Shown piece after piece: positions 772-63,677 of a stretch of DNA of 64,000 nt (position 1 is its first letter; every line of letters begins with the position of its first letter). The notes below the pieces were generated by a model, which saw only the letters and a program-made list of their open reading frames with translations, did no database searches and was not told the origin of the DNA. This DNA is from a virus. The DNA is taken from the IMG/VR virus record IMGVR_UViG_3300046697_000072, one strand, 5' to 3'. A program made the position numbers and the translations under genes.

Positions 772-1130
772 ACACCATACGACTCGACGAGAAAGCAGTC
801 AAGGCGATATTCGAGACGGCGGAAAACCAGTCCGACGCCCTTATCGCGCTTTACCGCATGGTATTCCCAGAGTGGGACCGCATCACGAAGATCGACGGCT
901 GGCCCACATGCAACAAGTCCACATGGAAGTCCATCTGTGAACGGTTCATGGACCTTGACCGGCGCAAGCACGCCGATGTTATGCCCGGCGGAATGTGGAT
1001 GAACAACGGGTTCTCCAGCCGCGAGGGGGAGCACCTGAAAGACTGGCAAGTGGAGCGCTGCCCGGTCGTCATGGAACCGGAAACGCCTGGACCGTCCAAC
1101 GTTGTACAGCCGCAAGCGATTGCGGCATAG
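768..1130 (+). CDS. hypothetical protein
   Basis: ATG 768 overlaps the stop of the previous gene (ATGA); GGAGGA RBS; 120 aa. Confidence 0.65.
   Translation: MNTIRLDEKAVKAIFETAENQSDALIALYRMVFPEWDRITKIDGWPTCNKSTWKSICERFMDLDRRKHADVMPGGMWMNNGFSSREGEHLKDWQVERCPVVMEPETPGPSNVVQPQAIAA
1094..1107. repeat. iterated palindrome copy GTCCAACGTTGTAC
   Basis: 3' end of gene 768-1130 (S-N-V-V); 31 nt upstream of ATG 1138. Confidence 0.9.
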
Positions 1131-1137
1131 GAGAGCG

Positions 1138-1254
1138 ATGAGATACCTTGAACTGGGCGGGGCGGCCATAGTTGGGCTGGCGATTCTGTCTCTGCTTATG
1201 GACTTGCTCAACGATTTCATCTGCCGGAGTATCGGCGGGAAGGTGGGACGGTAA
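1138..1254 (+). CDS. small membrane peptide (38 aa)
   Basis: Not in the ORF track (<60 aa). GGAGAG RBS; hydrophobic core GGAAIVGLAILSLLM; TAATG overlap with the next gene. Confidence 0.5.
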   Translation: MRYLELGGAAIVGLAILSLLMDLLNDFICRSIGGKVGR

Positions 1255-1511
1255 TGGCTCTCACGAAGAAACAACTTCGTAGGCTGGAGGAAATCCGCTA
1301 TGCCTTGTCGAGCGGCGTAGCGTACCTGAGAAAGCCGACTATCGCCGTCTGCATTAAAGGCTCCCCAGCCACCACAACCTATCACGCGGTACGCCCGCTC
1401 GATGGCGTCACGCTCTATGAAGTCGAGAAAGAGATGGGCTCGGAGTTGTGCATGGCTTTCACTGCCCTGCACTCCCTTGAGAAGATGATTGAAGAGGAGC
1501 GGCCCGCATGA
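1254..1511 (+). CDS. hypothetical protein
   Basis: 85-aa ORF, coupled on both sides. Confidence 0.6.
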   Translation: MALTKKQLRRLEEIRYALSSGVAYLRKPTIAVCIKGSPATTTYHAVRPLDGVTLYEVEKEMGSELCMAFTALHSLEKMIEEERPA

Positions 1512-1600
1512 CCCGCACTGTGGCTGGATGGCTGGCCGTGGCTGCTATCTTCATTGGGGCCTATGGCCTCTACTGCATCGCCACGGGGTTCTGGAGGTAG
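1508..1600 (+). CDS. small membrane peptide (30 aa)
   Basis: ATGA overlap with the previous stop; sequence MTRTVAGWLAVAAIFIGAYGLYCIATGFWR is one TM helix. Confidence 0.4.
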   Translation: MTRTVAGWLAVAAIFIGAYGLYCIATGFWR

Positions 1601-1604
1601 ACAA

Positions 1605-1910
1605 ATGGACAAAGAAATTCCTGACTTATCTCGCACAAAAGCCGCTCTCGAAGTGTACGACGCCTTTGACTCCGAGTTCGACGCGGAGGGGAGCCAAGAC
1701 GACGTTCTAGCTGAGTTTGCAGAGCTTGAGCGTTTTGGCAAGGCTGTAGGCAGGGCCTTTGGACTCGACACTGCCGACCGCAACAACGTGGACGACTGCG
1801 AAAGGTGCATCCGGCCAGGGAATAAGGTCCCTCCGGCAGGGATGCAACTGTCTTTTGTGCGCCGCATGGTGGAGCGATGGGAGGAACAGGAAGAACGCCA
1901 CAGCCGGTAA
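1605..1910 (+). CDS. hypothetical acidic protein
   Basis: GGAGG RBS 6 nt before ATG 1605 (internal Met of ORF 1554-1910). Confidence 0.6.
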   Translation: MDKEIPDLSRTKAALEVYDAFDSEFDAEGSQDDVLAEFAELERFGKAVGRAFGLDTADRNNVDDCERCIRPGNKVPPAGMQLSFVRRMVERWEEQEERHSR

Positions 1911-1967
1911 GGAAGCCTCTAGCCGCCACCCGGTGACAGCGGGCGGCGGATGGAGGAGGTCTTAACG

Positions 1968-2186
1968 ATGACGCCGTATATCGGATTTGGAAACGACACT
2001 TTGGCAAAACTGCCGAAGGTTAAATCTGGGGATTCTATCCGCTGCAAGTGTGGCCACGTCCACGCCCTGGAAGACAGCGAGCCACCGATGCTGCTGTGGT
2101 ATCACTGCGACGGAAAGACTTTCCTCGCTGGAATCAATGGATGCTTGACGGATGGCGTCAAAGCGGACGTTTCAGGAGAGATCTGA
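1968..2186 (+). CDS. small Cys/His protein (possible zinc ribbon)
   Basis: GGAGGAGG RBS before ATG 1968; CKCGH...HCDG. Confidence 0.55.
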   Translation: MTPYIGFGNDTLAKLPKVKSGDSIRCKCGHVHALEDSEPPMLLWYHCDGKTFLAGINGCLTDGVKADVSGEI

Positions 2187-2507: not shown

Positions 2508-3979
2508 ACCTACTGGCGAGCTTCCGTGCCGCAAGGCGCGTCTCAACTCCCTTAATTTGCATCCGGACGGCTGACCCGGCTGCAACCATGCGGACAATCA
2601 GCACGTCCTTCAACGGAGACCCGCCTCCGATCCTACACTGGGACACCGTGGCGGGAATCCGGGGTGTCAATAAACCCGGCGTGGCCGCAGCCGGGGACCT
2701 GGGCAGCGATCCTGGTAGCATCATCGGCCCAGTGGATGCGCTCATTGCGGCGGCGAAGCTACCGCCGCGCTCCATGCTGTTCTTCGCCAATGCCCATCGG
2801 GTGATCGGTGAGAATGGCGTTTCCCAAGCCGTATGGAATCTCCGGGACTCATTCAAGCGGGACACCCGGACTCTGGTCATGCTCTGTCCAACGTTGAACC
2901 TTCCGGCTGAAATCAGCCAAGATGTCCTGATGCTGGATGAGCCACTCCCGACCAGTGAAGAACTGGAGGCCATTGTCCGCGACACGTTCAAGAGCGCGGA
3001 CCTCACGATGGCCGAAGATGGCTCAATCACGAAAGCCGTGGACGCCATCTGCGGGCTAGCCGCGTTCCCGGCTGAACAGTCCTGCGCCATGAGCATCACC
3101 AAAGACGGTATGGACTTGGATGCGCTATGGGACCGGAAGAGAAGCTCAATCGAGGAACAACGCGGCCTATCAGTCTGGAGAGGAGGAGAGAAGTTCTGTG
3201 ACATCGGGGGCTACTCCAATCTCAAGAAATTCCTGATGGCTGTCCTGAAAGGCAGAGTCCCCCCGCGTGGAATAGTTTTCCTGGATGAACTTGAGAAGGG
3301 CATCGGCACCGGGCAAGACACGTCCGGTGTCAGCCAGGGGCTACTCCAGCAGCTTCTCACCTACATGCAGGATAAGGAGTCGATTGGCCTGCTTCTAATC
3401 GGCGCGGCGGGGACTTCCAAGTCCATGTTCGCCAAGGCTACCGGCAATGAGGGCGGTGTCCCGACTATCGCTCTGGACCTCGGTGGGATGAAGGGTTCTC
3501 TGGTAGGTGAATCCGAAGCCTCTCTCCGTAATGCCCTGAAAGTCTGCGATGCTGTCACTCAGAAACGAGCCCTATTTTTGGGAACGTGTAATTCTATCGG
3601 AGCTTTACCCCCGGAGCTACGGCGTCGGTTCAATCTAGGCATTTTCTTTTTGGATCTCCCGAACTCTGCCGAGCGTAAGGCCATCTGGGACCTGTATCTC
3701 AAGAAGTATGATTTACCGAAACAGACACTCCCGACAGATGACGGCTGGACAGGTGCAGAGATCCGGCAGGCTTGCTGGATTTCTTGGAACCTCAACATTC
3801 CCCTAGTGGAAGCGGCGGAGTACATTGTCCCGGTATCCCGGTCTGCATCGGAGCAGATCTCCAAGCTCCGGGATAGCGCCGATGGACGGTACATCAGTGC
3901 ATCGTACCCCGGAGTGTTCCTTAAAGCTGGCCCCTCTTCGGCTCAGACCGGACGCAAGATGAATCTGGAGGTCAACTGA
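2504..3979 (+). CDS. AAA+ ATPase, Ycf46-like
   Basis: C-terminal AAA module: GAAGTSKS (Walker A-like), IVFLDELEK, TCNSIGALPPELRRRF...PNSAERKAIW (sensor/Arg-finger region); ~490 aa; followed by DUF1257/DUF2997-like genes. Confidence 0.7.
   Translation: MNLLASFRAARRVSTPLICIRTADPAATMRTISTSFNGDPPPILHWDTVAGIRGVNKPGVAAAGDLGSDPGSIIGPVDALIAAAKLPPRSMLFFANAHRVIGENGVSQAVWNLRDSFKRDTRTLVMLCPTLNLPAEISQDVLMLDEPLPTSEELEAIVRDTFKSADLTMAEDGSITKAVDAICGLAAFPAEQSCAMSITKDGMDLDALWDRKRSSIEEQRGLSVWRGGEKFCDIGGYSNLKKFLMAVLKGRVPPRGIVFLDELEKGIGTGQDTSGVSQGLLQQLLTYMQDKESIGLLLIGAAGTSKSMFAKATGNEGGVPTIALDLGGMKGSLVGESEASLRNALKVCDAVTQKRALFLGTCNSIGALPPELRRRFNLGIFFLDLPNSAERKAIWDLYLKKYDLPKQTLPTDDGWTGAEIRQACWISWNLNIPLVEAAEYIVPVSRSASEQISKLRDSADGRYISASYPGVFLKAGPSSAQTGRKMNLEVN
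2886..2899. repeat. iterated palindrome copy GTCCAACGTTGAAC
   Basis: Internal to the AAA+ gene (P-T-L-N). Confidence 0.9.
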
Positions 3980-5404: not shown

Positions 5405-5406
5405 CT

Positions 5407-5952
5407 ATGCGCCTTCATGCAACGTTGCACGGAAGCCAGGCGAACGGTCCCGGCCTCCGGAGTGTGGTGTGGGTCCAGGGCTGCTCACTCGGCTGCAAGG
5501 GGTGTGTCAACCCGGAAACTTGGGACGCGGACGGCGGCTATGAAGTCCACCCGAACGTTATCGCCTGTCGCATAATTCGGAATGCCGCTCCGAACACTGA
5601 GGGACTTACCATATCAGGCGGTGAGCCACTCCAGCAGGGGATCGAACTGCTGTATATGATCCAAGAGATTAAGCGGCTTCGCCCGGCGTGGTCGGTTGGG
5701 CTTTTCTCGGGATACACCGAGTCGGAGTTGCGCAGAATCCCCCGATGGACCGCCATCCGTGCAACGTTGGACTTCGCGGTTTTGGGCCGGTATGACCGGA
5801 CCCAGGCGTGTAGCAAGCCACTGGTTTCAAGCGCAAACCAGGAGCTTGTGCTCTTGAGTTCCAGATATACGCTCAATGATTTTCCGGCTCAGTCCGAAGA
5901 GGTCTTCGTCGGGCCGGATGGATTATGTCAGATCACCGGGTTTGCCCGGTAA
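5407..5952 (+). CDS. radical-SAM activating enzyme, NrdG-like
   Basis: ANGPGLRSVVWVQGCSLGCKGCVNPETW (CxxxCxxC cluster in NrdG/PflA-type context); TISGGEPL SAM motif; ~180 aa. Confidence 0.75.
   Translation: MRLHATLHGSQANGPGLRSVVWVQGCSLGCKGCVNPETWDADGGYEVHPNVIACRIIRNAAPNTEGLTISGGEPLQQGIELLYMIQEIKRLRPAWSVGLFSGYTESELRRIPRWTAIRATLDFAVLGRYDRTQACSKPLVSSANQELVLLSSRYTLNDFPAQSEEVFVGPDGLCQITGFAR
5417..5430. repeat. iterated palindrome copy ATGCAACGTTGCAC
   Basis: Codons 4-8 of the radical-SAM gene (A-T-L-H). Confidence 0.9.
5759..5772. repeat. iterated palindrome copy GTGCAACGTTGGAC
   Basis: Internal to the radical-SAM gene (A-T-L-D). Confidence 0.9.
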
Positions 5953-7912: not shown

Positions 7913-7926
7913 AGTGCAACTTTGGA
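7913..7926. repeat. 13/14 variant GTGCAACTTTGGAC
   Basis: Intergenic, 43 nt upstream of ATG 7969; central CG changed to CT. Confidence 0.6.
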
Positions 7927-7968
7927 CTCGGAGGCTGTCTGAACAACAGCCCACAGGAGGAAGCGCCT

Positions 7969-9407: not shown

Positions 9408-9622
9408 CCCGCTTGCTGCTGGACTTCCTGAAATACCTGGGATGGTGCCAACACACGAAGTATTCTTTCCCCCGCACTGACCCGGCCACCGGCGTTATGA
9501 GCACGGTCTGTTTGGACTGCACGCATCGCTTCGAGTACGACTGGGAGCACATGCGCCGGGGTAAACCGGTGCCGGACCCCGCAACCCCGCGTCCAACGTT
9601 GCACAAGGAGGTGACACAGTGA
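9404..9622 (+). CDS. small Cys/His protein
   Basis: 72 aa; C..H...CLDCTH pattern. Confidence 0.55.
   Translation: MTRLLLDFLKYLGWCQHTKYSFPRTDPATGVMSTVCLDCTHRFEYDWEHMRRGKPVPDPATPRPTLHKEVTQ
9591..9604. repeat. iterated palindrome copy GTCCAACGTTGCAC
   Basis: 15 nt upstream of GTG 9619 (P-T-L-H in the upstream gene). Confidence 0.9.
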
Positions 9623-10288: not shown

Positions 10289-10528
10289 ATGAAAGACGAT
10301 ACACGAAGGAAAATCTTTTGTAAGGCTCGCCAATTGGGGTTCTCTGTCAAGATGTCTGCCGCCGCCTTTGACCTTGCCGCCCGCGCCTTATGCCGAATGG
10401 CACAGAACGGGGATAGCGACATCCGGAAAGCGCTGGAACAGGAAGCCCCAGATATCGACGCGGCCACGGACTACGCGGCAGAAGTTTTGTGCCGTGCAAC
10501 GTTGGATTGCTCTGAGGAGGTGAAATAG
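10289..10528 (+). CDS. hypothetical protein
   Basis: Internal ATG of ORF 10220-10528; start uncertain. Confidence 0.45.
   Translation: MKDDTRRKIFCKARQLGFSVKMSAAAFDLAARALCRMAQNGDSDIRKALEQEAPDIDAATDYAAEVLCRATLDCSEEVK
10494..10507. repeat. iterated palindrome copy GTGCAACGTTGGAT
   Basis: 24 nt upstream of ATG 10531 (A-T-L-D). Confidence 0.9.
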
Positions 10529-12020: not shown

Positions 12021-12034
12021 GTGCAACGTTGGAC
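12021..12034. repeat. iterated palindrome copy GTGCAACGTTGGAC
   Basis: Intergenic dnaN/recT, abutting the recT RBS. Confidence 0.9.
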
Positions 12035-14286: not shown

Positions 14287-14961
14287 GTGTCCAACGTTGA
14301 ACTAACGTACAACGCCGAGAAGCACGAATACCGAATCGGGGGCCGAAAGGCCCCCGGCATAACGACCGTGCTTTCGGCCATGTCGTACTATCCCTCTCAG
14401 GGGCACTACACGGATGAGAGCCGCAGGCGTGGAACGGCAGTACACCACGCCTGCTACCTCCTGGACGAGCACTGCCCCCAGGCAACCACGGTCGATGAGG
14501 CCCTGGAAGTCCTGGACCTGGACGACCGCCTGATCCCCTACATGCAGGGGTACTTGGCTTGGAAACGGGAGAGCGGGTTCATCCCTCAGAGGCATGAGTT
14601 TCAGGTTTGCTCTGCCAAGCTGAACATCGCGGCCACACCGGACCTGTACGGGATATTCCCCGGACCATGCGGAGGTGTGGTTGAACTGAAGACTTGGAAA
14701 GCCGCCCCGCCGAAGTGCCAGCGATCCGCTGAACTCCAGACCGCCGCGCAAGCCTTGATGATCGAAGAATACCTGGGGCTCCCGGTCGAGCGCCGGGTGG
14801 TGGTGGCGTTGACCGGGAACCCGGATCACCCACACCGGGCTTACGTCTGTGACCGGCCCGGAGACAAGAACATCGTAGCGTTCCTGGCACACGTGTTCTG
14901 GGACCGCGTTAACTCCCGGTTGCTGGAATGGACCGGGGAGGAAGAGGAGGATGAAGAATGA
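14287..14961 (+). CDS. PD-(D/E)XK family exonuclease
   Basis: HEYRIGGRKAPGITTVLS N-terminus; D (PDLYG) ... ELK (VVELKT) nuclease motif; adjacent to RecT. Confidence 0.65.
   Translation: MSNVELTYNAEKHEYRIGGRKAPGITTVLSAMSYYPSQGHYTDESRRRGTAVHHACYLLDEHCPQATTVDEALEVLDLDDRLIPYMQGYLAWKRESGFIPQRHEFQVCSAKLNIAATPDLYGIFPGPCGGVVELKTWKAAPPKCQRSAELQTAAQALMIEEYLGLPVERRVVVALTGNPDHPHRAYVCDRPGDKNIVAFLAHVFWDRVNSRLLEWTGEEEEDEE
14289..14302. repeat. iterated palindrome copy GTCCAACGTTGAAC
   Basis: Codons 1-6 of the exonuclease gene (S-N-V-E); extra half-site GTACAACG at 14307. Confidence 0.9.
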
Positions 14962-17109: not shown

Positions 17110-17355
17110 ATGTCCAACGTTGCACTGACCATACAGGAGCGGATCAATCTGGTCCGCTCCGCGATTGAGAAAATCCGGGATGCTGAAGCCCAGTTGAAGG
17201 AGTTCGGTTGTACGAGTTCCGAGAAGCCTTTCTTCGATCTGGTTAAGCGAGCTGAGGCTAGGGGCCGTCTCGAAGCCGCCCGATACAATTGGCGCGGACA
17301 ATGGTCCAACGTCGAAGTCATCTTGCAGGAAGGTCTGAGAGAGGAGCTGCGGTAA
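17110..17355 (+). CDS. hypothetical protein
   Basis: 81 aa; start codon is embedded in a palindrome copy. Confidence 0.6.
   Translation: MSNVALTIQERINLVRSAIEKIRDAEAQLKEFGCTSSEKPFFDLVKRAEARGRLEAARYNWRGQWSNVEVILQEGLREELR
17112..17125. repeat. iterated palindrome copy GTCCAACGTTGCAC
   Basis: Codons 1-6 of ORF 17110 (M-S-N-V-A-L). Confidence 0.9.
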
Positions 17356-47978: not shown

Positions 47979-50900
47979 ATCATCATCTGCATGAAAGAAG
48001 ACAGGGTGGTTTTGGTATACCCTGCATGTCGGTCAGAGCCAAGCGGCAACCATTCAATCCCAGAGGGATCTCCGTACAAAGAGAAGGTCGTCTCCCCGTC
48101 GCTCGATGCTATCGAAATGTCGTAAAGGACGGACTTGTTCAACCCGGAGCCGAACACGCTCGGGAAAAGATACCGCTCAACTGAGCGAGTAGGATGCGCC
48201 GGAAAGGGGACCACCAATGTCCCCGTGCTCGATACGAACGTCACGTTGATTGGGACCGCCGACACGTATTCGATCCACAATTGCTTCAGTAACTTGAACG
48301 CCGAATACCCAAAACTCTGCTGGTATGAGGTCCACTGGGTCACTGCGGGAGGCTCTTTCACGATATCCAGGGTCCAATCCCACAGTTGCGCCCGGCCTCC
48401 GGTTCCCGGAGTGAACAGCAACCTCCACATAAGCCCTGACAGTTCCGGGTTGCAAGCAAGGACTATTCGCCGATTCGTATAAGTCGTGTTCACCAGAAAC
48501 GTCTGTTGGGTAACTCCGTCGCTTGTTTGAAGTGCCACTGAGCACGTCACCCCTCCAGTGTTTATGGTTGCGATAAAGTTTCTGGCCAACTTCGGATAGG
48601 GGTAGCCGAAATCCTGCCATGGGGTATAAAGTATGACTTCCGGGGGATCTATAGGCCCGGCTTGATCGAAAGCGTGCCAACGCTCAAACCCCCAATTGAA
48701 CAATTGAAAGCGCCCGCCAGCCCCTTCGGTAGCAAGGATGCGCCACATCTTCGCGTGAGTATCAGCCGGGATTGCGTAGTTGAACTTTCGATTGGTGGGC
48801 GTGCCAGTATGTGTTACGGTTAGAACCGTCCCATTTTCATTTTGCAGATATACTGTGGAGGGAACGCCAGCCGTATCAGCGTCGAGCCAGAGCCATGAAG
48901 GTTCCTTGTCGTTTGGGTCTGAAGCGTCTCGCCAGTCCGTGGTGTGGATTATGTCTGGTGGGTAATCGACCTTCTGGAAAGTATACTTCCACTGCTTGTA
49001 ACCAGCCGGGATCGTAACCCCTGTAGGATAGATGCGAATCATCTTGGCGACGGTATCGGCGGCAATCGGAAATTCAGTTTTGCCGCGCCCTGTACCGAGC
49101 ACAAATTGTGCAACGTTGGAGTTCAACGTCACGCCTCCGATGCCAGTGAGGGTATCCATCTGAAGCGTGATCGGGCCGCCCAATGTCGTATCGTATTCGA
49201 AGACTACCGACAACAGCAGTTTGTCGTAGGGGTGCTCCAACTCGTCCCAGTCGAATGTGTGCTGCACTTCTCCTTTGTCTGCCTGCTGGAACTTCAGGGA
49301 GTGGTTAAAAAGCTGCCACGTCCCTTCCCTGGTGGCGAGAGCGGGTTGAGTTAAGTCAACGAAAAGCCTCCAGCGGTAACCCGTCAGTCCGGTCGGGACT
49401 GTGATGTTCCTTTGCCGGTCGGCTTCAGTTGAGATCACGGTAAACTTGAACTTGGTAACATTGTCGGCTTGGAGCCAGCACTCAACAGCTACCCCGTTCG
49501 TGTTCACTTCCAAGACCACTTGGTTGGCATACTTGAGGTACGACAGCCCGCCGTCCTCCCAGGGGGTGAATCCCGTAACATCCTCAGGGTACGTCTCTTT
49601 CTGAAAGTCAACAGAATGGATCTTGAAGAATGCGACTGAGGATTGGCCAACCGCCCCTACTGTGGCAACAGGCCGCACGCGCACCAGCTTGGCGATAATC
49701 CCATCCGTCACAGGGAAAGACTTCTTGGCTCGCCCTGCTCCCAGAATCGTGGGATTCGAAAGGACAAACGTCTGCACGGCTTCGTTGTAGGTATCCCCGT
49801 CCTTCCCTGATATCGTATCCAGAACTATCGTGCGGTCAGTTCCTTCCGTGTCGAACGTAACCGTCATCTGGTGGAGCTTTTTGTCGAAGGGATGATCCAG
49901 GTCCATCCAGTCTGTCGTCCCCCCAGCCGTCAGAAGCCCCGTCTCCTGGTACTGGAACATCAGGCTATAGAAGGTCGCTTGAGCCGGGTATGCGGTGCCG
50001 TAAATATGAAAAGAGATCGCCCGCGCTTCCCGGCCAAACGACTGAAGGCCCGCAGCCTTTGACACTACATTGGCAAGCAAGGCCACCGGCTGTCGCCCGG
50101 TCAGGCTTGTTCCAGAAGGGATGGTGACTGCCACCGAGTCTACTGCCGTGTCTGAGTAATCGAGCAGGATCTCCACCGTCATCGAAGAGGCCGGGGAACC
50201 TGTGAACAATTGCGGATCTACATCCAGCCAAATCTCCTCAAATAGTTTTTTGGCGTTCGGAAGACCGAGATCAAACCATGGGAGCCAAATATCGTATGGG
50301 ACTGCCGATCCCCCGGAAAACGGATCGACCCATCCATCTGCGGTCTGGTCTGTCCCAGCCGCGATATTCACCGCATCTGCGATAACGAACGTGGCCCCGA
50401 GAGAGGGGCTGTCCAGCGCCAGAATTAGAGACTGAGTATCCGGCTCGGTGTAGATTGTTGAGATTTCGGAAAATGGCGAATAGGTCTCCGGGTACAGGCT
50501 CCATCGATCCCCATAAAGGGGTTCGCACATCAATTCCTGCATGACGTTATTGATGTCTCTGTAGAGCAGGCGGATCACTCCACGCCGGTATTCCATGCGG
50601 GCGTAGAGGAGCGCGTTGGGCTGCATACTGATCGGCGGAATCCCGTTGACTTCCATACTGTGGAAGATCGGGTCGATGGCCTCAGTCCGTTTCTGGAGCG
50701 ATCCACCATCCCAGGACCAGATGCCATCCGTGGACAGGAACCAGACTTCAGTTTCCGTCTTACACCATGCCGGCTGCGCGACGAGCCCCTTCTCCGCTAT
50801 CTTTACCGGAGTCAGCAAAGAGCCTGAGATGAGCGGCACTTCAAATAGGCTGCTGACATTCATGGAAAGGATCTGGCCCCGGTACTCACAAAAGTTCACG

Positions 50901-52624
50901 ATCCCGTTGGCTGGGGTTCCGACCCCAATGTTAGTCACGGCCCCGGAAGCGTCCGTGCCCACAGGGAAGGCTTCGGGGTAGCCCGACTTGCTCTTGTAGA
51001 GTATGTGCGGATTGTTGGGATCACCAGCCACCAGAACAGCATCTCCCACGTTGGCTGTCAGGTTGCACGGCTGGCCAGCGATGGCATCCACGGTGATGAC
51101 ATCCCCGTCTTCGTGGACGTACTGGAAGTACACGATGATCGTGGTGCCGGAGATCGCTCCGATTATGCAGTCTTCGCTCCCGCTGGTTGCGGCTATGTGT
51201 GCCAATGTTCCTGGGGTGAGATTATAGGCGGATGGCAACGCTGCCAGAGACACAGCCATCCACCCGGCATCGAAGATTCCCCCCGCAGCAGAGATCGTGC
51301 TGGAGTACGGGACCGGGACCGTGCTGGTCACCGGCATGTCGTTGTCGATCTCGATCTGATTGTTGTAAATCTGAACGGTGTCTGCGATGTTGTCCACGAA
51401 AGTTGCGGGGTTGGGGACCCCGGCGGTTACTCCTGGATTGGGGACAGATCCAACGAATCTCCAGGTATCGTAGTTTAGACCCCCACGGCGGTAGATGTTG
51501 AGTGTCTTGATATCCACGTCGGGGCTTCCCCAGACGGTAACCGCGACTTGGCCCAAATGAACAGCAAGAGGGATGCCGGAATTGTTCCCTCCCATCGCAA
51601 AAGAGGCATCCGGCACCATCACCTGAGAAGGGTTCCCTTCATTGCCTGTCAGCCCAGAAATGCCAGTCCATCGCCAATCGTAAGGGATCGAACTGGCCGG
51701 GCTTTCGTCCGCGCCGCCATCTAGCAGCCCGATGGCCAGCCCGTTGGGAGATCCAATCTGGGTGATCGTCCCAGCGGCAGTGATCGTACCTGAACCTGTC
51801 ACCATCTGGCCGTTGCTGTCGAAGAGGCGGAACATCGTGGTCGGGTTGTCGATTGTCACTCCATCCGCATCGACTACCCCAACTCGGATGTCCCATGTGT
51901 CGTTAATGTCCGTGCGCCCATCGGTCGTTGTGACGGCGAAGGTGCCCGTCACCCCCGCGATCTTGACCGTGCTATCGTCCAACATGGGGACCGAAGGTGT
52001 TTGATCTTGAGGGGCGGAATCAAGTACGATGACCACCCCGCCCCAGGTGGGCCAGTTCGTGTAGATGTAGTCAATGGAGATAGCCGGGGCCAAAGTCTTC
52101 GGCGTTGCATCTGGGACTTGTACCGCTTGCGCCACTCCGGCGGATGGTGGAGTACCCCATAGCGGCAACGGAGACTGTGGAGTTACCCCGCTGTCCTTGA
52201 GCATGGCCTTCGGACAGGCGAAGAATCCGAATGGCTGACCAGTTTCCCCAGCCGCATACGACGCCATCTCCCAGTGCTTGCCAACTCCCTCTACGCTAGC
52301 CGCCACCACTACTGCGGTTTTGTAATCGTATGTCCGAAGGATGTTCTGGTTGATGTCCAGATAGCGAGGGTTGGAAGATGGAACAAGTGGGTCCTCATTT
52401 GGCGTCACCACCAACTTTCGTACAACGTTGCACGGGGACAAGCCCGCGCCCAAACTGCCAATGAGCTTGGACCCGGTGCGGCTCGAAAGAGCGCCCTCCT
52501 GGACGGAATAGACCCCGGACAGACGGCGATACCTTCCGTCTTTCAGGAGATCCGGGCTCTCTTTGTTCACCATCCCTTGGTGAGAGAACCGAAAGGCGGA
52601 AGTTTTTGAGCCCGGATTTTCCAC
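47975..52624 (-). CDS. 1549-aa giant structural protein (possibly tail-hub or nozzle-like)
   Basis: N-terminus QGMVNKESPDLLKDGRYRRLSGVYSVQEGALSSRTG recalls podovirus tail-tubular-B N-termini (weak). Confidence 0.45.
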   Translation of the reverse strand: MENPGSKTSAFRFSHQGMVNKESPDLLKDGRYRRLSGVYSVQEGALSSRTGSKLIGSLGAGLSPCNVVRKLVVTPNEDPLVPSSNPRYLDINQNILRTYDYKTAVVVAASVEGVGKHWEMASYAAGETGQPFGFFACPKAMLKDSGVTPQSPLPLWGTPPSAGVAQAVQVPDATPKTLAPAISIDYIYTNWPTWGGVVIVLDSAPQDQTPSVPMLDDSTVKIAGVTGTFAVTTTDGRTDINDTWDIRVGVVDADGVTIDNPTTMFRLFDSNGQMVTGSGTITAAGTITQIGSPNGLAIGLLDGGADESPASSIPYDWRWTGISGLTGNEGNPSQVMVPDASFAMGGNNSGIPLAVHLGQVAVTVWGSPDVDIKTLNIYRRGGLNYDTWRFVGSVPNPGVTAGVPNPATFVDNIADTVQIYNNQIEIDNDMPVTSTVPVPYSSTISAAGGIFDAGWMAVSLAALPSAYNLTPGTLAHIAATSGSEDCIIGAISGTTIIVYFQYVHEDGDVITVDAIAGQPCNLTANVGDAVLVAGDPNNPHILYKSKSGYPEAFPVGTDASGAVTNIGVGTPANGIVNFCEYRGQILSMNVSSLFEVPLISGSLLTPVKIAEKGLVAQPAWCKTETEVWFLSTDGIWSWDGGSLQKRTEAIDPIFHSMEVNGIPPISMQPNALLYARMEYRRGVIRLLYRDINNVMQELMCEPLYGDRWSLYPETYSPFSEISTIYTEPDTQSLILALDSPSLGATFVIADAVNIAAGTDQTADGWVDPFSGGSAVPYDIWLPWFDLGLPNAKKLFEEIWLDVDPQLFTGSPASSMTVEILLDYSDTAVDSVAVTIPSGTSLTGRQPVALLANVVSKAAGLQSFGREARAISFHIYGTAYPAQATFYSLMFQYQETGLLTAGGTTDWMDLDHPFDKKLHQMTVTFDTEGTDRTIVLDTISGKDGDTYNEAVQTFVLSNPTILGAGRAKKSFPVTDGIIAKLVRVRPVATVGAVGQSSVAFFKIHSVDFQKETYPEDVTGFTPWEDGGLSYLKYANQVVLEVNTNGVAVECWLQADNVTKFKFTVISTEADRQRNITVPTGLTGYRWRLFVDLTQPALATREGTWQLFNHSLKFQQADKGEVQHTFDWDELEHPYDKLLLSVVFEYDTTLGGPITLQMDTLTGIGGVTLNSNVAQFVLGTGRGKTEFPIAADTVAKMIRIYPTGVTIPAGYKQWKYTFQKVDYPPDIIHTTDWRDASDPNDKEPSWLWLDADTAGVPSTVYLQNENGTVLTVTHTGTPTNRKFNYAIPADTHAKMWRILATEGAGGRFQLFNWGFERWHAFDQAGPIDPPEVILYTPWQDFGYPYPKLARNFIATINTGGVTCSVALQTSDGVTQQTFLVNTTYTNRRIVLACNPELSGLMWRLLFTPGTGGRAQLWDWTLDIVKEPPAVTQWTSYQQSFGYSAFKLLKQLWIEYVSAVPINVTFVSSTGTLVVPFPAHPTRSVERYLFPSVFGSGLNKSVLYDISIASSDGETTFSLYGDPSGIEWLPLGSDRHAGYTKTTLSSFMQMMI
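49108..49121. repeat. iterated palindrome copy GTGCAACGTTGGAG
   Basis: Internal to the 1549-aa gene (S-N-V-A); adjacent half-site GTTCAACGT at 49121. Confidence 0.9.
52420..52433. repeat. iterated palindrome copy GTACAACGTTGCAC
   Basis: About 200 nt into the 1549-aa gene (C-N-V-V). Confidence 0.9.
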
Positions 52625-56400: not shown

Positions 56401-58681
56401 TAACAGATGAGATCGTGACCGGAGCCGTGAGCGTGGTACTGGCCTCAAACCATGAGTTTGCTACCGACGTGCAAGTCAGAGTCGATGTGGTATTCGGGTT
56501 GAAAGAATAAGACACGCCTGCGCCAGAACCGCCCCCACCGCCCGAACCGCACTCCGTACCAGTCCCGGTGACCGCTCCTGTAGGACCAGCATGGAGGCAC
56601 TGATTGCCAGACCCGGTGACGGTGAGGAGCGTAAGGATTCCGCTGCCATCAATGATGCTCTGCGCGGACCCGCCCACGCCCAACCAGAATCCGCCGTTGC
56701 TCCCCGTGCCTGCGCTGACATGCTGGCCGTTGGCCGTGCTGATCGTTCCTGCCGCCGCGACGTTGTAGACATTCCCAATTGAGATCGTCGGGCATCCGGT
56801 AGCGTCACATTGGATAATCCCGGTGGTCCCGACGTAGTATCCCGCTACAGCCGTCAGGCTCGTGTTGGCCGTGACTGAACCGGGGAACGGGTTCCCTCCA
56901 CCTCCCCCGCCGCCTCCACCTGATCCGCAATCTGACCCGGTTCCGCCGACAACGCCAAGCGAATTGACGTGAAGGCATTGCGTCATCCCCGCCACGTCGA
57001 TTGTCAGATGTCCAAGCAGGGACGTGGCACCGGAAACCGTCAGACCTGAGAACGATCCGTTCCTGCTGGAATCGATGGCCGTTACGCCGCTGATCTCAAA
57101 AGCATTGGACGTGTTGACGTAGCCGGTGGTGCTGATGTTCAAGCTGCCGTCGATGATCGTTGTTCCACCTACTGCGTAACTGCCCGCCGCGATCCCCGCA
57201 TTTGCTCCGCTCCCTCCAACCTTGAACCCCACCCCTGCTGCGGTCTGAACTCCGACAGTTCCGCTGAACTCCAATGTGCCCGAGGTGGGCACATAGGCGC
57301 TTGCGCCCTGCCACAAGATACGACCAAAGTTCCCTAACCCGTCGATCTTGATGGCCACAACATTGGCCGAATTCAAGATGGAATTCGCGTCTTGCAGGTT
57401 TTGAACCCAGACCCCGTATCCGTTGACCACATGACCGCCGCCGCCGCCGTAACCTCCTGGTTGCCCAACGATGAGTCCCGCCCAGGTGTTCAGCGTCACA
57501 CCGGAAGAGACTTGCGCCAAACTTGCCAGGTAGTTCATGCCCAGATTTGCGGTGTACGCCGATGCGGGAGTCTGGTAGTACAGTTCGGAGTCCACCGCTT
57601 TCTGCTGGCCGCGAATGTAAGGCGAACCGTATCCGGAATCGGTCGGGAGATTCATCGCTCCAAGGACTACCACTCCGGCCAATCCGAACTGGTCCCATCC
57701 GTTCGATCCTTCGTCAACCGTGGTCCGCACCACTCGCACTACCGAAGACACGCCCCTCGATTCGTTGTCCTGGTTCAACCAGGTATGGTCGATGTTTGAC
57801 ACCACGTACCCGAGCGCGGTTGAATCGTTCAGGCTCGCGCCGCCCCAAGCGGTGAACCCGTTCCCGTCGATGACTTGGTTAGAGCCTACGTACACCCCTC
57901 CGTTGAAGGTCTTGGCTCCTGTGATCGTTTGCGTGGTGTTGGTCGTAACGCACGTCGGGCAGTTCGCTGCCGAGATCCCCGTGAGCCATGCCGGGGCGTT
58001 GTAGGTCTGCGTGGTGTCCACGGCGTTGGTCACCATGGCAGCCGTGTAGTCTCCCGTGGTAGGGACCACCGCCCCCGTCCTGGTGTTGAACGAATTGACA
58101 ATAGCCTGAAAGGTCGGGTCCGCACTTGCCTCGTTGGACACCAGACCGTAGTTGGCTGTACCTGCCGCCGTCACAGAGAGCGCCGAACTCCCTTCCCCGA
58201 CAAGCACCCCATGAGCAGTGAACGACGAGGCTCCGGTCCCTCCTTGCGCCAAAGTGATCGGATATACCGCAGACGCCAGCGATGTTGACAAGTAGAAATC
58301 TTTGCAGGCCGAGTAGGTCACGGTGGCAGCCCCGGTCACAACGATCTGGATGTACGGGTGATAGCCATTTGAATAGGCAATGGGCGGGTTGCTAACCTGA
58401 GTGATCGTAGCCTGAGAGCCAAAACTTGTCCACGGACCCGCGCAAGAAGTGTCGGAGAAGTTCATGGCAACGGTCCATGCTCCGGCCCCGGTGGCGTAGA
58501 TGCTGTGGTAGTTGTTATGGCGGGAAACTGCGCTGGAGTTATTTATTCCGTTGGTGCCGCATTCCGCAGAAGCCCAGGAACTTGTGATCCCGTAAATCCT
58601 GGTAATCATCAAGCTGGTCTGAGAGGTCTGGGATAGTCCAACGTTGCACAGCAGAAATAAAAACGGCAGTAGTTTTTTCAT
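53459..58681 (-). CDS. 1740-aa secreted giant fibre or tailspike-like protein with C-terminal parallel beta-helix repeats
   Basis: MKKLLPFLFLLCNVGLS/QTSQ signal; three G(T/S)GS(D/E)CGSGGGGG modules; C-terminal NNTLDGG.. / IANNKCEN.. / ITANTMAN.. / ITGNTIQG x2 repeats. Confidence 0.65.
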   Translation of the reverse strand: MKKLLPFLFLLCNVGLSQTSQTSLMITRIYGITSSWASAECGTNGINNSSAVSRHNNYHSIYATGAGAWTVAMNFSDTSCAGPWTSFGSQATITQVSNPPIAYSNGYHPYIQIVVTGAATVTYSACKDFYLSTSLASAVYPITLAQGGTGASSFTAHGVLVGEGSSALSVTAAGTANYGLVSNEASADPTFQAIVNSFNTRTGAVVPTTGDYTAAMVTNAVDTTQTYNAPAWLTGISAANCPTCVTTNTTQTITGAKTFNGGVYVGSNQVIDGNGFTAWGGASLNDSTALGYVVSNIDHTWLNQDNESRGVSSVVRVVRTTVDEGSNGWDQFGLAGVVVLGAMNLPTDSGYGSPYIRGQQKAVDSELYYQTPASAYTANLGMNYLASLAQVSSGVTLNTWAGLIVGQPGGYGGGGGHVVNGYGVWVQNLQDANSILNSANVVAIKIDGLGNFGRILWQGASAYVPTSGTLEFSGTVGVQTAAGVGFKVGGSGANAGIAAGSYAVGGTTIIDGSLNISTTGYVNTSNAFEISGVTAIDSSRNGSFSGLTVSGATSLLGHLTIDVAGMTQCLHVNSLGVVGGTGSDCGSGGGGGGGGGNPFPGSVTANTSLTAVAGYYVGTTGIIQCDATGCPTISIGNVYNVAAAGTISTANGQHVSAGTGSNGGFWLGVGGSAQSIIDGSGILTLLTVTGSGNQCLHAGPTGAVTGTGTECGSGGGGGSGAGVSYSFNPNTTSTLTCTSVANSWFEASTTLTAPVTISSVTCPPASGGYVDLSFTFSQGSTVYAVTLPSPFDGSLWALMPINSSMTCSGKYDGTSWPATCTSSSNDTILPGTVTFSGITGTVQCAHFNALGELSGTGSDCGSGGGGGTPGGSSGQIQYNNGGVFGGFTAGGDLTFSQPSFTLNTVNSSPVSCGSSTQSCVLTINGKGLVTASSTATISGGGGGGNPFAGSVTANTALTPDAGYYVGTTGVIQYSASLGGVVNIGNVFNINSNSGNIVTCQIYGGSCVGAGTGHVGSGAGTYGGYYIYNTQIIDGSANAHLGTVNSSSGTFTGSVTANATPTNTAGFYIQFPSSNPFGYTGNTGIIQYATGSPSVVDIGHVQDITAGGTIFTTGHLAATPSSDIVAETLIGYTGGSADLLDVYSQPSGGGKVFSITHSGQLLAFGSGSSNWSSLEFLPSATYADLVFSAGVGATYSAFQMVAVASSTPYITLQIGSRNYIGASSPECASFIGGICVSGSSGPYNVQGYNFTPYSCNMTTSTCVPGGTSSGTLSSGTHALTFTPCPVGAASFVPASPHAFWYYISGGSGTAEAAYVSGTTCTSGSSTGTMTLYGLSYSHGGSFVIGSATAGAQEAAIAAGASNAGNPTGPLYFPFGTYSFYAPVYIDNGARVFGGGTSQSLIVNWNGSNGLFDVDGGPAVSFSNLRMDSIGTVSSGNYAIRIGSNVETSFSSVDHVLFNNFYDEILGVSMNQLSVSDSTFYQFHHTAITAQDTACPDCGGPTVTSNRFLNYSVSPAAEAAILINSSSEHMISNNTLDGGNAVKYFVEYNSTTSGGWINIANNKCENTTLGCIVLTGYGAQTAITANTMANSGNFASWDAILVNGSSGAGFPWGTITGNTIQGASGSNSNIAAWLQGTTSDWTITGNTIQGVDYAYLINGSPTGVTVTLGNTRTIYTSQAYAVSSGVIVEGGQMSYATMTSTSVGLGNTGNSSHTYCLDCNITCTLGSSTGQSCVKVNGAWTH
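58636..58649. repeat. iterated palindrome copy GTCCAACGTTGCAC
   Basis: Signal-peptide codons of the 1740-aa gene (C-N-V-G). Confidence 0.9.
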
Positions 58682-61480: not shown

Positions 61481-61497
61481 ACACTACCCTCACCGGC

Positions 61498-61526
61498 ATC
61501 ATACGACAACCGGGCAAGGTTTTCAA
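61498..61526 (-). promoter_or_regulatory. sigma70-like promoter for the tail/fibre operon
   Basis: Minus strand: TTGAAA-17 nt-TATGAT; palindrome copy 27 nt upstream of the -35 box. Confidence 0.6.
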
Positions 61527-61553
61527 TAGCTTAGGGCAGAATCAGATGGGCGC

Positions 61554-61567
61554 GTGCAACGTTGGAC
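61554..61567. repeat. iterated palindrome copy GTGCAACGTTGGAC
   Basis: Intergenic; 27 nt upstream of the -35 box of the late promoter. Confidence 0.9.
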
Positions 61568-61570
61568 GGA

Positions 61571-62266
61571 TTACGCTGGGGTGACTGCCACCGTTCCCCC
61601 GCTGGGCATGGGCACCGCCACCACCTCGGACGGGTCGAACATGTCGTTCGTAACCCCGGTTACCCGGAGGTGCGTGCTGTAGATCTTCGGGGCCACGTAG
61701 CAGGCGATCCCCAGTTTCATGCAGCGCTGGAAGAAGCTGAAGTCCTCACTGAACTTCCCGATGATATCGAACGGCTCCTCGTGAAGTTCGTTCCAGATGC
61801 GCTCGAACACCCGCCTGCGGACCAGCAGGCACCCGGCCCCGGCGCAGTCGATCTTCACCAAGTCGGCGTTCCAGTCCATCTGCGACACGATCATGTAGGC
61901 ATTGTTCACCCACATATAGGTGGTTGGCAGGAACGGACCTGCCTTGTACCGATACAACCCTGTGAGCACGTCGAGGTCTTTCTGCTTCATCAGGGAGACC
62001 ATCCGACAAACAATATCAGGCCCGAATTGGTGGTCGCTGTCGGTGGTCCAAAGCCAATCACCGAGCATCGTTCGGGCCAGCCCGTTGCGGGCCGTGACGT
62101 GGTAGCTGCTGATCGATCTATCCCGGTGAACAAACTCCCCCGTCTGGCACATGTATTCCTGATTGTAGACTCGCATGTCTGCCCAGGAATCTGTGAACTC
62201 GGTTGGTACGGACATCAGCCCGCCTAAATAGGCCACCGTTCCTATTGGCCTTCGTAGAATCAGCAC
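61571..62266 (-). CDS. glycosyltransferase (GT2-like)
   Basis: ARNGLARTMLGDWLWTTDSDHQF...GAGCLLVRRRVF...SEDFSFFQRCMKLG...H; AAGGAG RBS before GTG 62266. Confidence 0.6.
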   Translation of the reverse strand: MLILRRPIGTVAYLGGLMSVPTEFTDSWADMRVYNQEYMCQTGEFVHRDRSISSYHVTARNGLARTMLGDWLWTTDSDHQFGPDIVCRMVSLMKQKDLDVLTGLYRYKAGPFLPTTYMWVNNAYMIVSQMDWNADLVKIDCAGAGCLLVRRRVFERIWNELHEEPFDIIGKFSEDFSFFQRCMKLGIACYVAPKIYSTHLRVTGVTNDMFDPSEVVAVPMPSGGTVAVTPA

Positions 62267-62943
62267 GCGCGCTCCTTTGCCAAATACTTCTCCGCCGCTT
62301 TCAGACCTTCCGGGGTTCCGATGTCCAAGTAGGGTCCGGAGGACTCAATCGCAATGACTTGACCTCCGGCCTCCACCCAACGGTTAATCACCGTGCCGAC
62401 GTAAGGCTCTTGCTGCCACATCCTAGAAAGGGTTCTCAACTCCAGGCAGGTCATTCGCATCGCGCCCCATACCCATCCCGATGCTGGCTTTGAAGCCTTG
62501 ACCGCTACCCTTCTGACCATCCCGGCCTCGTCGTATTCCACGGAGTCGAAGTTCTCTGGATCGGGAACCTGGAATACAAGTAGGGACATTCTCTGTGGGA
62601 GTTTCTGAAAACCGTACTCTGGGAACCAGACCGTATCCGGCAACCCGATCAACACATCCCCACTTACAAAAGGCTCGCAGATGAAAATGGCGTCTGCCAG
62701 ACCAATCGGCTCCGGCTGAATCAGGTAGCAGAGTTTAGCTGACTTGTAGGTAGTGCCGTACTTACGAAGGATGTCGGCCTTCCCCGGTGCGATCACGATG
62801 CAGATCTTATCGGCCCCGCCAATCACCATACGGTCCAGCAAGTACTCGATCACCGGCTTACCGGCAACCGGGATCAGTTCTTTCGAGCACTGCCGGTTCG
62901 GAAGCCGGGTGCCTGATCCCGCTGCCGGGACTATTCCCCACAT
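62260..62943 (-). CDS. sugar-phosphate nucleotidyltransferase
   Basis: GIVPAAGSGTRL....SKELIPVAGKPVIEYLL signature; GGGAGG RBS before ATG 62943. Confidence 0.85.
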   Translation of the reverse strand: MWGIVPAAGSGTRLPNRQCSKELIPVAGKPVIEYLLDRMVIGGADKICIVIAPGKADILRKYGTTYKSAKLCYLIQPEPIGLADAIFICEPFVSGDVLIGLPDTVWFPEYGFQKLPQRMSLLVFQVPDPENFDSVEYDEAGMVRRVAVKASKPASGWVWGAMRMTCLELRTLSRMWQQEPYVGTVINRWVEAGGQVIAIESSGPYLDIGTPEGLKAAEKYLAKERAC

Positions 62944-63677
62944 ATTGCCTCCCAGTTCACACACGGTGCCAACCACTCCGTCTCACAGTGGGTGGCCAAA
63001 GACGGGATCGGACCCCACAGGGTCCGCTGCGGCTTGCAGCGCGGATACCGTCCAAGGGACTGAAGGTGCATGAACAACTCCCGATCTTGGGGATGAACGG
63101 TCCCTAGGTATGCCGAGATCCTGGCGTAGTCCCATCGCAGTGTTTCCACCCTAGCCGCGAACGTCATGCACGTAGACTCCTGCGTGCGCCAGTGGTGGCT
63201 CCCGGAATGAATAATCTGCTCTCCTCCGGGCCGATCAAAGTCTTGGCCGTTGTACCGGGCTGGGTGATCGTACAACGTTGCATAATCCGGGTGCTTCTCT
63301 TCAAAGAACTCCACCAGTTTCACCAGCGCGTCCGGGGTGTGCAGATAGTCGTCTTCCACGAAGTACACGATGTCATCGTCCGGGAAACCGGAAGTCGTAG
63401 CCAGCCGGAGGGCGTGCCGGAATGATGCCGCGTTCCCGATGGGACCACCGGATTCGTCCTTCAGAACCTCTACATCAGCGCCCGACCATAATCCACGGAG
63501 CCAATCAGGAGGGTGGTTCCCGTCGTATAGAACTCTTATTGCAACCGGAGTAGTCATCCGAGATGCTCTCTGGAGCGCTTCCATCAGACTCTTCAGACAG
63601 GCTCTTTTGGAGTACCACGCTGGCCGGTGCTTCGCCGGGTTCTCGGTCATGCACAGACGGTAGTAGATTCTCAGCAT
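62931..63677 (-). CDS. glycosyltransferase-like protein
   Basis: FVEDDYL (DxD-like) in a Rossmann-like N-half; start MLRIYY overlaps the upstream stop. Confidence 0.55.
   Translation of the reverse strand: MLRIYYRLCMTENPAKHRPAWYSKRACLKSLMEALQRASRMTTPVAIRVLYDGNHPPDWLRGLWSGADVEVLKDESGGPIGNAASFRHALRLATTSGFPDDDIVYFVEDDYLHTPDALVKLVEFFEEKHPDYATLYDHPARYNGQDFDRPGGEQIIHSGSHHWRTQESTCMTFAARVETLRWDYARISAYLGTVHPQDRELFMHLQSLGRYPRCKPQRTLWGPIPSLATHCETEWLAPCVNWEAICGE
63270..63283. repeat. iterated palindrome copy GTACAACGTTGCAT
   Basis: Internal to glycosyltransferase-like gene 62931-63677 (A-T-L-Y). Confidence 0.9.

Follow-up and report, generated by a model that had tools for sequence, protein, structure and literature searches.

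Dispersed, near-invariant repeats are known from several clusters of actinobacteriophages and, apart from the stoperators, their function is unsolved. The Cluster O mycobacteriophages (Corndog and its relatives), which have no integrase, carry more than 30 almost invariant 17-bp dyad repeats, about one third each in intergenic, 5'-proximal and mid-gene positions (PMC4351075). These repeats are unoriented, most of them are not located at promoters, and a dimeric binder has been predicted for an array whose function is unsolved (PMC4351075). Here we describe a 14-bp quasi-palindrome, GTGCAACGTTGGAC, which is iterated along a 64-kb stretch of DNA from an uncultivated freshwater phage (IMG/VR record IMGVR_UViG_3300046697_000072). 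We refer to this whole stretch as the window, and counts apply to it unless stated otherwise. The iterated quasi-palindrome is real, selected and lineage-specific, and it is a further case of this known but mechanistically unsolved type of repeat.

Judged by analogy, the Cluster O repeats are the closest published counterpart. Both arrays consist of tens of near-invariant dyad copies that are unoriented, occupy mixed positions and are kept among relatives (in our case L079-L081 and L204-L206). The gene sets are also alike, with a beta clamp, an AAA ATPase and glycosyltransferases adjoining the capsid genes. However, the Cluster O repeat (TGTTCGGNNNCCGAACA) has a 7-3-7 architecture with a spacer, whereas the window carries two 7-bp halves that abut on a central CG. 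About one third of the Cluster O copies are coding, compared with 79% here. Moreover, the Cluster O repeats are reported not to coincide with rearrangements, while several differences between the window and its relatives fall at site edges. No sequence relationship between the two phage groups was detected; INPHARED searches with the window returned no match.

Cluster A stoperators and Cluster K start-associated sequences, which had been put forward as analogues in the initial annotation, share fewer traits. Like the stoperators, the motif forms tens of conserved sites genome-wide (13-14 bp in Cluster A), also within transcription units, on which one protein is thought to act. Stoperators, however, are asymmetric and oriented with transcription, whereas the motif is quasi-palindromic and unoriented, so that membership in this class fails on both asymmetry and orientation. 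They also belong to temperate phages with a known repressor, while neither a repressor nor an integrase is seen in the 64-kb window. Start-associated sequences are ~13-bp elements that shortly precede the start codon in a subset of genes, at a fixed offset. Comparing them with the motif is not unfounded, given that 10 of the 24 sites are no more than 45 nt away from a start codon. In contrast to Cluster K, this concerns only about 40% of the copies, the offset varies, some copies overlap the start codon, and the other 14 lie elsewhere, many of them mid-gene.

A 14-bp quasi-palindrome under selection at the DNA level

The initial annotation reported at least 23 iterations of the palindrome, with about one copy of its 8-bp core expected, and the count holds. 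The palindromic 8-mer CAACGTTG occurs exactly 22 times, against a mean of 1.16 and a maximum of 5 in 100 dinucleotide-preserving shuffles. The full 14-mer GTNCAACGTTGNAC (or GTSCAACGTTGSAC as the pattern for counts in a host genome), searched with up to one mismatch, has 24 matches, 18 exact and six with one mismatch, where 0.16 are expected. This amounts to a copy every 2.7 kb or so. With two mismatches allowed, only 2 further sites appear, which is the chance level, so that copies are near-perfect or else absent. The relative entropy of the 24 sites and their surroundings is high at the 12 specified positions alone and drops to background one base outside. This means that the element is exactly 14 bp long, with no extension in the entropy profile.

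As a codon control, synonymous codons were shuffled within each gene while intergenic DNA was held fixed. Of the 22 observed 8-mers this leaves 6.9 ± 1.6 (maximum 13), a figure that includes by design four copies located wholly or partly outside the shuffled coding DNA. The excess thus stands against both kinds of shuffle that had been named as a check, which rules out chance or a codon artefact. As most coding copies are lost on synonymous shuffling, selection acts on the DNA sequence and not on the peptide. A peptide-driven motif is ruled out as well, since copies are found in all three frames and in non-coding DNA. Within genes the preferred reading is G-TSC-AAC-GTT-GSA-C, and nine of the 12 Asn-Val dipeptides encoded as AACGTT are in motif copies. 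At site 5417 the window encodes His-Ala-Thr-Leu-His with the motif, and L079, a related 17.5-kb contig, encodes His-Ser-Ile-Leu-His without it, so that the DNA word can override protein conservation.

The consensus is a quasi-palindrome in which two GTSCAAC half-sites abut on a central CpG. The motif is symmetric at 12 of its 14 positions (CAAC-GTTG centred on CG), and the remaining pair, positions 3 and 12, is nearly always G or C, yet not symmetric. Among the 18 sites with G or C at both of these positions, 15 read GTG..GAC or the complement GTC..CAC (binomial P = 0.004); of the other three, two read GTC..GAC and the third ..G..C. The copies seen in relatives all belong to the non-symmetric type too, which identifies the quasi-palindrome, rather than a perfect one, as the true consensus. 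The exact form or its reverse complement accounts for 11 copies, one fewer than the twelve counted initially: six are forward (5759, 12021, 37438, 38769, 44069 and 61554) and five are reverse (9591, 17112, 29349, 31142 and 58636). The two perfect palindromes (18411 and 46730), the TAACGTTG copy at 34294 and two extra half-sites are as first described. The flanks are less constant than was claimed, as four of the 22 8-mers carry one flank mismatch each (5417 ATG.., 10494 ..GAT, 49108 ..GAG and 63270 ..CAT), and the 13/14 variant placed at 7913 starts at 7914.

Regular spacing, as in a structural or packaging ruler, is unsupported (coefficient of variation of the intervals 0.83, P = 0.22), and the 10.9 kb without a motif copy over the tail-fibre genes are not significant by themselves (P = 0.25). 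No other dyad motif in the window or in distant relatives rises above resampling, and a literature search on CAACGTTG or on HIP-type palindromes with AACGTT found nothing relevant. The 24 copies are given below; ORF stands for open reading frame, and genes on the minus strand are marked as such.

1094..1107, GTCCAACGTTGTAC: exact; inside ORF 621-1472 (minus strand).
2886..2899, GTCCAACGTTGAAC: exact; inside the AAA ATPase gene 2504-3979.
5417..5430, ATGCAACGTTGCAC: one mismatch; codons 4-8 of the radical-SAM gene 5407-5952; codons and amino acids differ in L079.
5759..5772, GTGCAACGTTGGAC: inside the radical-SAM gene; exact in L079 at 1040, in a block of 74% identity.
7914..7927, GTGCAACTTTGGAC: degenerate; 11 nt into ORF 7903-8508; the orthologue at L079:3549 is degenerate at another position.
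9591..9604, GTCCAACGTTGCAC: adjoins the 5' side of the AAGGAGG ribosome-binding site of gene 9619-10209 (GTG start); kept at L079:4695, in a block of 72% identity.
10494..10507, GTGCAACGTTGGAT: one mismatch; gene 10531-10773 has its ATG 24 nt downstream; L079 homology stops exactly at the left edge of the motif.
12021..12034, GTGCAACGTTGGAC: intergenic, with the DNA polymerase III beta-clamp gene on one side and the RecT-fusion gene on the other; adjoins the 5' side of the ribosome-binding site.
14289..14302, GTCCAACGTTGAAC: exonuclease-like gene 14287-14961 (MSNVE..), whose GTG start it overlaps; conserved in L079, L080 and L081.
17112..17125, GTCCAACGTTGCAC: gene 17110-17355 (MSNVA..), whose ATG start it overlaps; conserved at L079:13844.
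18411..18424, GTCCAACGTTGGAC: perfect palindrome; inside the helicase gene 17356-19125; not at the orthologous place in L079.
29349..29362, GTCCAACGTTGCAC: control region with several divergent sigma70-like promoters; the -35 box of the promoter-like site at 29309 (minus strand) is 39 nt away.
31142..31155, GTCCAACGTTGCAC: mid-gene in the O-like/DnaD-like replication initiator gene 30539-31762.
33476..33489, GTACAACGTTGGAC: 7 nt past the stop codon of the DnaB gene 32108-33469.
34294..34307, GTGTAACGTTGGAC: one mismatch; intergenic; 24 nt upstream of the -35 box in the promoter (TTGACA-17-TAGAAT) of gene 34382-35143.
37438..37451, GTGCAACGTTGGAC: 9 nt ahead of the ATG at 37460 (ATGA stop/start overlap).
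38769..38782, GTGCAACGTTGGAC: mid-gene in the 928-amino-acid ORF 37960-40746 (minus strand).
44069..44082, GTGCAACGTTGGAC: 3' end of ORF 44040-45743 (minus strand) and 36 nt 5' of the start of ORF 40743-44033 (minus strand).
46730..46743, GTCCAACGTTGGAC: perfect palindrome; inside the GNAT gene 46412-46960 (minus strand).
49108..49121, GTGCAACGTTGGAG: one mismatch; followed by the half-site GTTCAACGT; inside a 1549-amino-acid ORF.
52420..52433, GTACAACGTTGCAC: inside the 1549-amino-acid ORF, 191 nt from its start.
58636..58649, GTCCAACGTTGCAC: codons 12-16 of the 1740-amino-acid ORF 53459-58681 (minus strand).
61554..61567, GTGCAACGTTGGAC: intergenic; 3 nt past the stop of the glycosyltransferase gene; the capsid-gene promoter (TTGAAA-17-TATGAT) has its -35 box 27 nt downstream.
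63270..63283, GTACAACGTTGCAT: one mismatch; inside the GT2-like gene 62931-63731 (minus strand).

Placement, conservation and occurrence elsewhere

In line with the first description, copies occur in both orientations, on both transcription strands, and in coding as well as intergenic DNA. No orientation preference was found for strand or for transcription, and both forms occur inside single transcription units. Their placement is biased nonetheless: four copies are fully and one is partly intergenic, though only 6% of the window is non-coding, about eight are 5'-proximal, and 11 are mid-gene. For 10 of the 24 sites the centre is no more than 45 nt away from a start codon, at distances of -42 to +38 nt, where 2.3 such sites would be expected (P = 5e-5). 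Among these start-proximal arrangements, the copies at 9591, 10494, 12021 and, on the minus strand, 44069 stand directly 5' of a ribosome-binding site. At 14289 and 17112, as well as at L079:13657, the first motif G is the last base of the start codon, and the protein begins Met-Ser-Asn-Val-Ala/Glu. The copies at 5417, 7914 and 58636 are a few codons inside the gene. Three intergenic copies (34294, 61554 and 29349) lie 24-39 nt upstream of the -35 boxes of sigma70-like promoters; the remaining strong promoters in the window have no motif copy. As a separate observation, unrelated genes share their first 16-21 nt, (TAG)CC-ATG/GTG-TCCAACGTTGCAC, at 14287 and 17110 in the window, at 13655 and 13842 in L079 and at 2153 in L082, and with it the N-terminus Met-Ser-Asn-Val-Ala/Glu.

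Some of the gene contexts first assigned to the copies are borne out by Pfam, namely the AAA ATPase, the radical SAM/Fer4_12 protein, the ResIII/DEAD helicase, the GNAT protein and the GT2 glycosyltransferase. The RusA label for 37023-37463 was not confirmed. Nor are there copies in fibre genes: the tail-fibre block (20.1-29.0 kb) has none, and the copies in the structural module are in large virion-module ORFs annotated without a function.

Alignment with related phages, which had been suggested as a check, shows that sites are kept while their flanks diverge. In L079, whose homologous blocks are 72-92% identical to the window at the nucleotide level, there are seven copies. Five of these match the window sites 5759, 9591, 12021, 14289 and 17112; of the other two, one is degenerate and lies opposite the degenerate site 7914, with its mismatch elsewhere, and one opens an extra gene. 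By our own calculation, a neutral word of 12 positions would survive intact with a probability of only ~0.02-0.03 at each of 5759 (74% identity) and 9591 (72%). Nine orthologous comparisons give no difference at 108 specified positions against 134 differences in 360 positions of the 20-nt flanks, a contrast that is illustrative rather than an unbiased test, as the pairs were picked because both members carry the motif. The copy at 12021 is kept in L079, L080, L081 and L083 and is missing in L082, whose upstream gene is replaced. The copy upstream of the capsid gene (61554) is identical in L204, L205 and L206, although the immediate flanks differ and the adjoining glycosyltransferase has 83% protein identity. 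Next to it, the promoter of the putative capsid gene (61498-61526, minus strand, TTGAAA-17-TATGAT) keeps its position and hexamers in L204 and L205, while its spacer and surroundings change. Sites are also gained or lost, as 5417, 10494 and 18411 have no counterpart in L079. In distant relatives, whose capsid protein is only ~45% identical, the motif is absent, and no convincing iterated or dyad motif of a comparable kind was found in four of them (L001, L003, L006 and L008).

Several differences between relatives coincide with motif edges. The alignment with L079 sets in 3 nt before 17112, and in L079 the 14289 copy is followed immediately by an insert of 3 nt. In L081, a 36-nt insert directly follows the 12021 copy, between the motif and the RecT ribosome-binding site. 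In L082, which has another upstream gene in place of the original one, the break is at the right edge of the missing 12021 motif; L082 and the window agree over the opening 8 codons of gene 13951, and divergence then sets in at L082's own motif copy. These differences would fit cassettes made up of motif, ribosome-binding site and gene. However, the coincidence is confounded, because module boundaries fall at gene boundaries anyway and because a selected block always looks like the edge of diverged DNA. Two further features of the relatives touch these places. In L079, two additional genes stand between the KTSC gene and the MSNVALT gene, and the second of them begins with its own motif copy. 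The insert in L081 (positions 35-70) holds a GC-rich hairpin, CGCCCGGAATTTCGGGCG, which is present in this one relative only.

Outside this lineage, no iteration of the motif was seen in IMG/VR or, apart from one small cluster, among the GTDB matches listed. The exact 14-mer matches 68 stretches in IMG/VR, each with a single copy. In GTDB (one genome per species) there are at least 120 loci from different organisms, each with one full copy among the matches listed, except for the single contig L134; by our own estimate from the IMG/VR hit rate, these listed matches may reflect only about one sixth of the collection. Second 8-mers without flanks occur at the chance rate among the GTDB matches listed. 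Absence from distant relatives and the lack of iteration in IMG/VR fit a lineage-specific pairing of a protein with its site.

The array also persists in a genome from which most 6-bp palindromes have been purged. In total, 356 palindromic hexamers are observed where 988 are expected. Among the palindromic hexamers, 47 have an expectation of 8 or more, and 24 of these are below 0.2 of expectation, compared with 0.1% of non-palindromic hexamers. Almost absent are 28 hexamers, e.g. GGATCC (0/28), GACGTC (0/22), CTCGAG (0/22), GTGCAC (0/18), GGGCCC (1/36), CCGCGG (1/33), CGATCG (1/26) and CCCGGG (2/39). This avoidance is uniform along positions 1-64000, including the tail-fibre block, and is found also in L077 and L079 and partly in L001 and L006. 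It points to intense type II restriction pressure in the host population. AACGTT itself is depleted like other palindromes outside the motif (4 observed, ~12 expected), whereas 23 of the 27 AACGTT hexamers in the window are inside it. This means that the motif is maintained against a general palindrome purge.

Gene content and relatives of the phage

A 103.7-kb contig (JGI 3300046698 Ga0495367_000140, L077) is 99.6% identical to the window over 22 kb. Both closer and more distant relatives of this tailed phage come from freshwater-lake metagenomes; two scans of JGI metagenomes found nothing, and the putative capsid gene has no relative in IMG/VR. Recognised genes encode the AAA ATPase, the radical-SAM/Fer4_12 protein and a pentapeptide-repeat protein, together with the polymerase III beta clamp, the RecT fusion, two exonuclease-like proteins and the ResIII/DEAD helicase. 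The O-like/DnaD-like initiator, DnaB, two HNH proteins, SU10-type adaptor proteins, the glycosyltransferases adjoining the putative capsid gene and very large virion-module ORFs complete the set. Strong sigma70-like promoters (TTGACA-17-TAGAAT) are present. No integrase, repressor, LacI, ParB or methyltransferase gene was detected in the 64-kb window, and neither were tRNA or tmRNA genes or Rfam families above the gathering score.

In the recombination module (12029-14961 and 16123-16872), the RecT domain is fused to a C-terminal region of ~400 amino acids without a recognised domain (636 amino acids in total). Downstream of the fusion there is a 110-amino-acid ORF and then an exonuclease-like gene, while a second exonuclease-like gene is located at 16123-16872. 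The relatives differ by a 112-amino-acid ORF inserted after RecT. At the end of the virion module, the 928-amino-acid ORF (37960-40746, minus strand) weakly resembles Sigma-70 region 2 at residues 792-840, with a score just under the Pfam cut-off. The control region at 29260-29860 has at least five sigma70-like promoter matches on both strands (29309 minus, 29500 plus, 29538 minus, 29811 minus and 29824 plus), along with small ORFs, and a 13-bp perfect inverted repeat at 29857-29889. It is probably the early, divergent switch of the phage.

The pentapeptide-repeat gene (6916-7866) is built of 15-bp tandem units, with TGCGAACC present ~25 times at a 15-bp period. This word came up as a second over-represented k-mer and is merely the tandem repeat of this gene. 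The L077 gene is 90 bp shorter (283 amino acids called, against 316) and the L079 copy encodes 238 amino acids, which means that the number of pentapeptide repeats varies between relatives.

Candidate binders and functions

We tentatively favour the view that one sequence-specific, probably dimeric protein recognises the motif in double-stranded DNA, and that the copies form a genome-wide operator or roadblock array, mostly at the 5' boundaries of genes. One dimeric protein would recognise the 14-mer through the two GTSCAAC half-sites that meet at the CpG. Copies would be placed wherever coding constraints permit, with a preference for gene 5' boundaries, i.e. ahead of the ribosome-binding site, over the start codon or upstream of sigma70-like promoters. 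Here, a single protein could modulate the transcription of many units at once, following the logic of the stoperators and of the Cluster O 17-bp repeats. As a by-product, the conserved 14-mer would mark cassette boundaries at which relatives differ.

The dimeric DNA-binding protein that the initial annotation had envisaged thus agrees with the dyad symmetry, the DNA-level selection and the conservation. Several points weigh against it. The asymmetry at positions 3 and 12, where G/G (or C/C) is preferred, would not be predicted for a simple homodimer. Of the 24 sites, 19 are coding, and the majority of the sites have no promoter-like sequence nearby. In agreement with the first impression that no protein is recognisable as the binder, Pfam and PHROGs searches of nearly all ORFs in the window gave no helix-turn-helix, LacI or ParB match. 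Furthermore, the analysis covers 64 kb of a genome of roughly 104 kb. A candidate of the phage's own was considered in gene 34382-35143, which follows a strong TTGACA-17-TAGAAT promoter with a motif copy upstream and has the highest third-position GC in the window. Its all-helical product of 253 amino acids belongs to a family of at least 262 representatives (~250 amino acids), and its AlphaFold model is confident (pLDDT 93.7). As a binder it also counts against this view, since it has no Pfam, PDB-sequence or significant PDB-fold match; its fold matches are only uncharacterised phage proteins.

Alternatively, the sites could be operators for a host-encoded regulator, for example a LacI-family repressor, which would tie phage development to a metabolic signal of the host or be titrated as the phage replicates. 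We regard this as unlikely, though it has attractive features. LacI-family operators are even palindromes with a central CG, as is the motif, and 72% of LacI-family regulators are autoregulated (PMC4052901). The one small cluster found in GTDB, on the unrelated bacterial metagenome-assembled contig CAVAUD010000031.1 (L134, 66% GC, no protein similarity to the window), holds two exact and one one-mismatch 14-mer in 2.7 kb (2304-2317, 3406-3419 and 4981-4994), with an estimated chance probability of ~1e-3 across the 120 GTDB loci listed. One of these copies is 88 nt upstream of a LacI-family regulator gene (5082-6080), a typical autoregulatory position, and another lies between the divergently oriented genes for an SDR dehydrogenase and a TetR-like protein. 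The cluster looks like a small cellular regulon using this operator, and we take it as a lead on the type of binder, not as proof. The lack of a phage-encoded binder candidate in the window would also fit a host regulator. However, L134 is a single locus, and LacI-family genes are found near 4 of the 120 GTDB loci listed, which is about chance. LacI operators are usually 16-22 bp long and lie at -140 to -30 from start codons, with fewer than 1% in coding DNA (PMC4052901), whereas 79% of our copies are coding; nor does the window contain a LacI-family gene by Pfam or by tblastn with the L134 LacI and E. coli PurR. Another possibility is that the motif is a hot spot of recombination or cleavage, at which a phage nuclease or the RecT-exonuclease system acts and cassettes are shuffled, as at the PeSL of T4-type phages. 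PeSL elements combine a promoter with a stem-loop and are oriented. Like them, the motif is a short conserved element at the 5' boundary of small genes that coincides with gene insertion or replacement, but it is a bare 14-mer and is also found inside large genes. In favour of a hot spot are the differences at motif edges in L079 (10494, 17112 and 14289), L081 (12021) and L082, the extra L079 gene that opens with a copy, and the RecT fusion, the two exonuclease-like and the two HNH proteins encoded in the window. We nevertheless find this explanation improbable: the motif is enriched at the gene boundaries where modules meet, a selected constant block always appears as the edge of a diverged neighbour, and 14 bp of homology is short for recombination of the Red/RecT type. 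In addition, the 11 mid-gene copies show no rearrangement, and the Cluster O repeats are not involved in rearrangements (PMC4351075). Just as improbable in our judgement is a boundary element with a dual role, i.e. an operator array for a LacI-like regulator that doubles as a joint for cassette swaps, a lytic-phage equivalent of the stoperators kept against the palindrome purge. Here, a host or phage regulator would insert at the central CpG, sense a metabolite and block transcription at ~24 places, coupling the lytic programme to host physiology, while cassettes of motif, ribosome-binding site and gene would be exchanged between related phages at the motif.

It is still harder to see the motif as an iterated palindrome of the host type, like HIP1 of cyanobacteria and cyanophages, where a methyltransferase or repair-linked drive in the host would have been inherited by the phage. 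HIP1 is an 8-mer with thousands of copies in the host chromosome. Both are short over-represented palindromes in coding and non-coding DNA, the AACGTT core is of the type recognised by type II restriction-modification systems, most AACGTT hexamers of the window are inside the motif, and the phage genome has clearly been shaped by restriction pressure. However, GCGATCGC occurs 0 times in the window, the motif has 12 specified positions, far above the 8 of HIP1, and the searched data hold no sign of a host-wide counterpart. The 68 IMG/VR matches are all single copies, as are the matches listed for the at least 120 GTDB loci apart from the regulon-like cluster of L134. As far as the matches listed go, this speaks against the HIP1 analogy first proposed. 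A mutational drive would not be expected to produce a bias towards gene starts, and the tail-fibre block is equally poor in palindromes yet has no copy. Least probable of all, we think, is an element acting in RNA, either bound by an RNA-binding protein near starts or formed by forward and reverse copies that pair into a 14-bp duplex as a processing site. Orientation is no guide here, because the 12 specified bases read alike in both transcripts. The 10 sites that flank or overlap start codons and ribosome-binding sites would suit such an element, and the G/G versus C/C asymmetry, which bars perfect self-pairing, would still allow forward and reverse copies to pair. On the other hand, three intergenic copies are upstream of promoter-like sites and thus outside the leader of the following gene, a single-copy hairpin would be very weak, over half of the copies are mid-gene, and there is no Rfam match.

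Taken together, we propose that the array represents a second, clear-cut case of Cluster O-type repeats, in an uncultivated freshwater lineage that is unrelated to those phages and differs from them in host range. It adds several clues to this class of repeat, namely the overlap with start codons, the LacI-type central CpG, the non-symmetric pair of positions and the persistence despite a palindrome purge. As the site is near-invariant over 14 bp, its binder could be fished by DNA-affinity pull-down or DNA affinity purification sequencing (DAP-seq), and its effect could be tested by synonymous recoding. The motif may thus make it practicable to find out what arrays of this type do in general.

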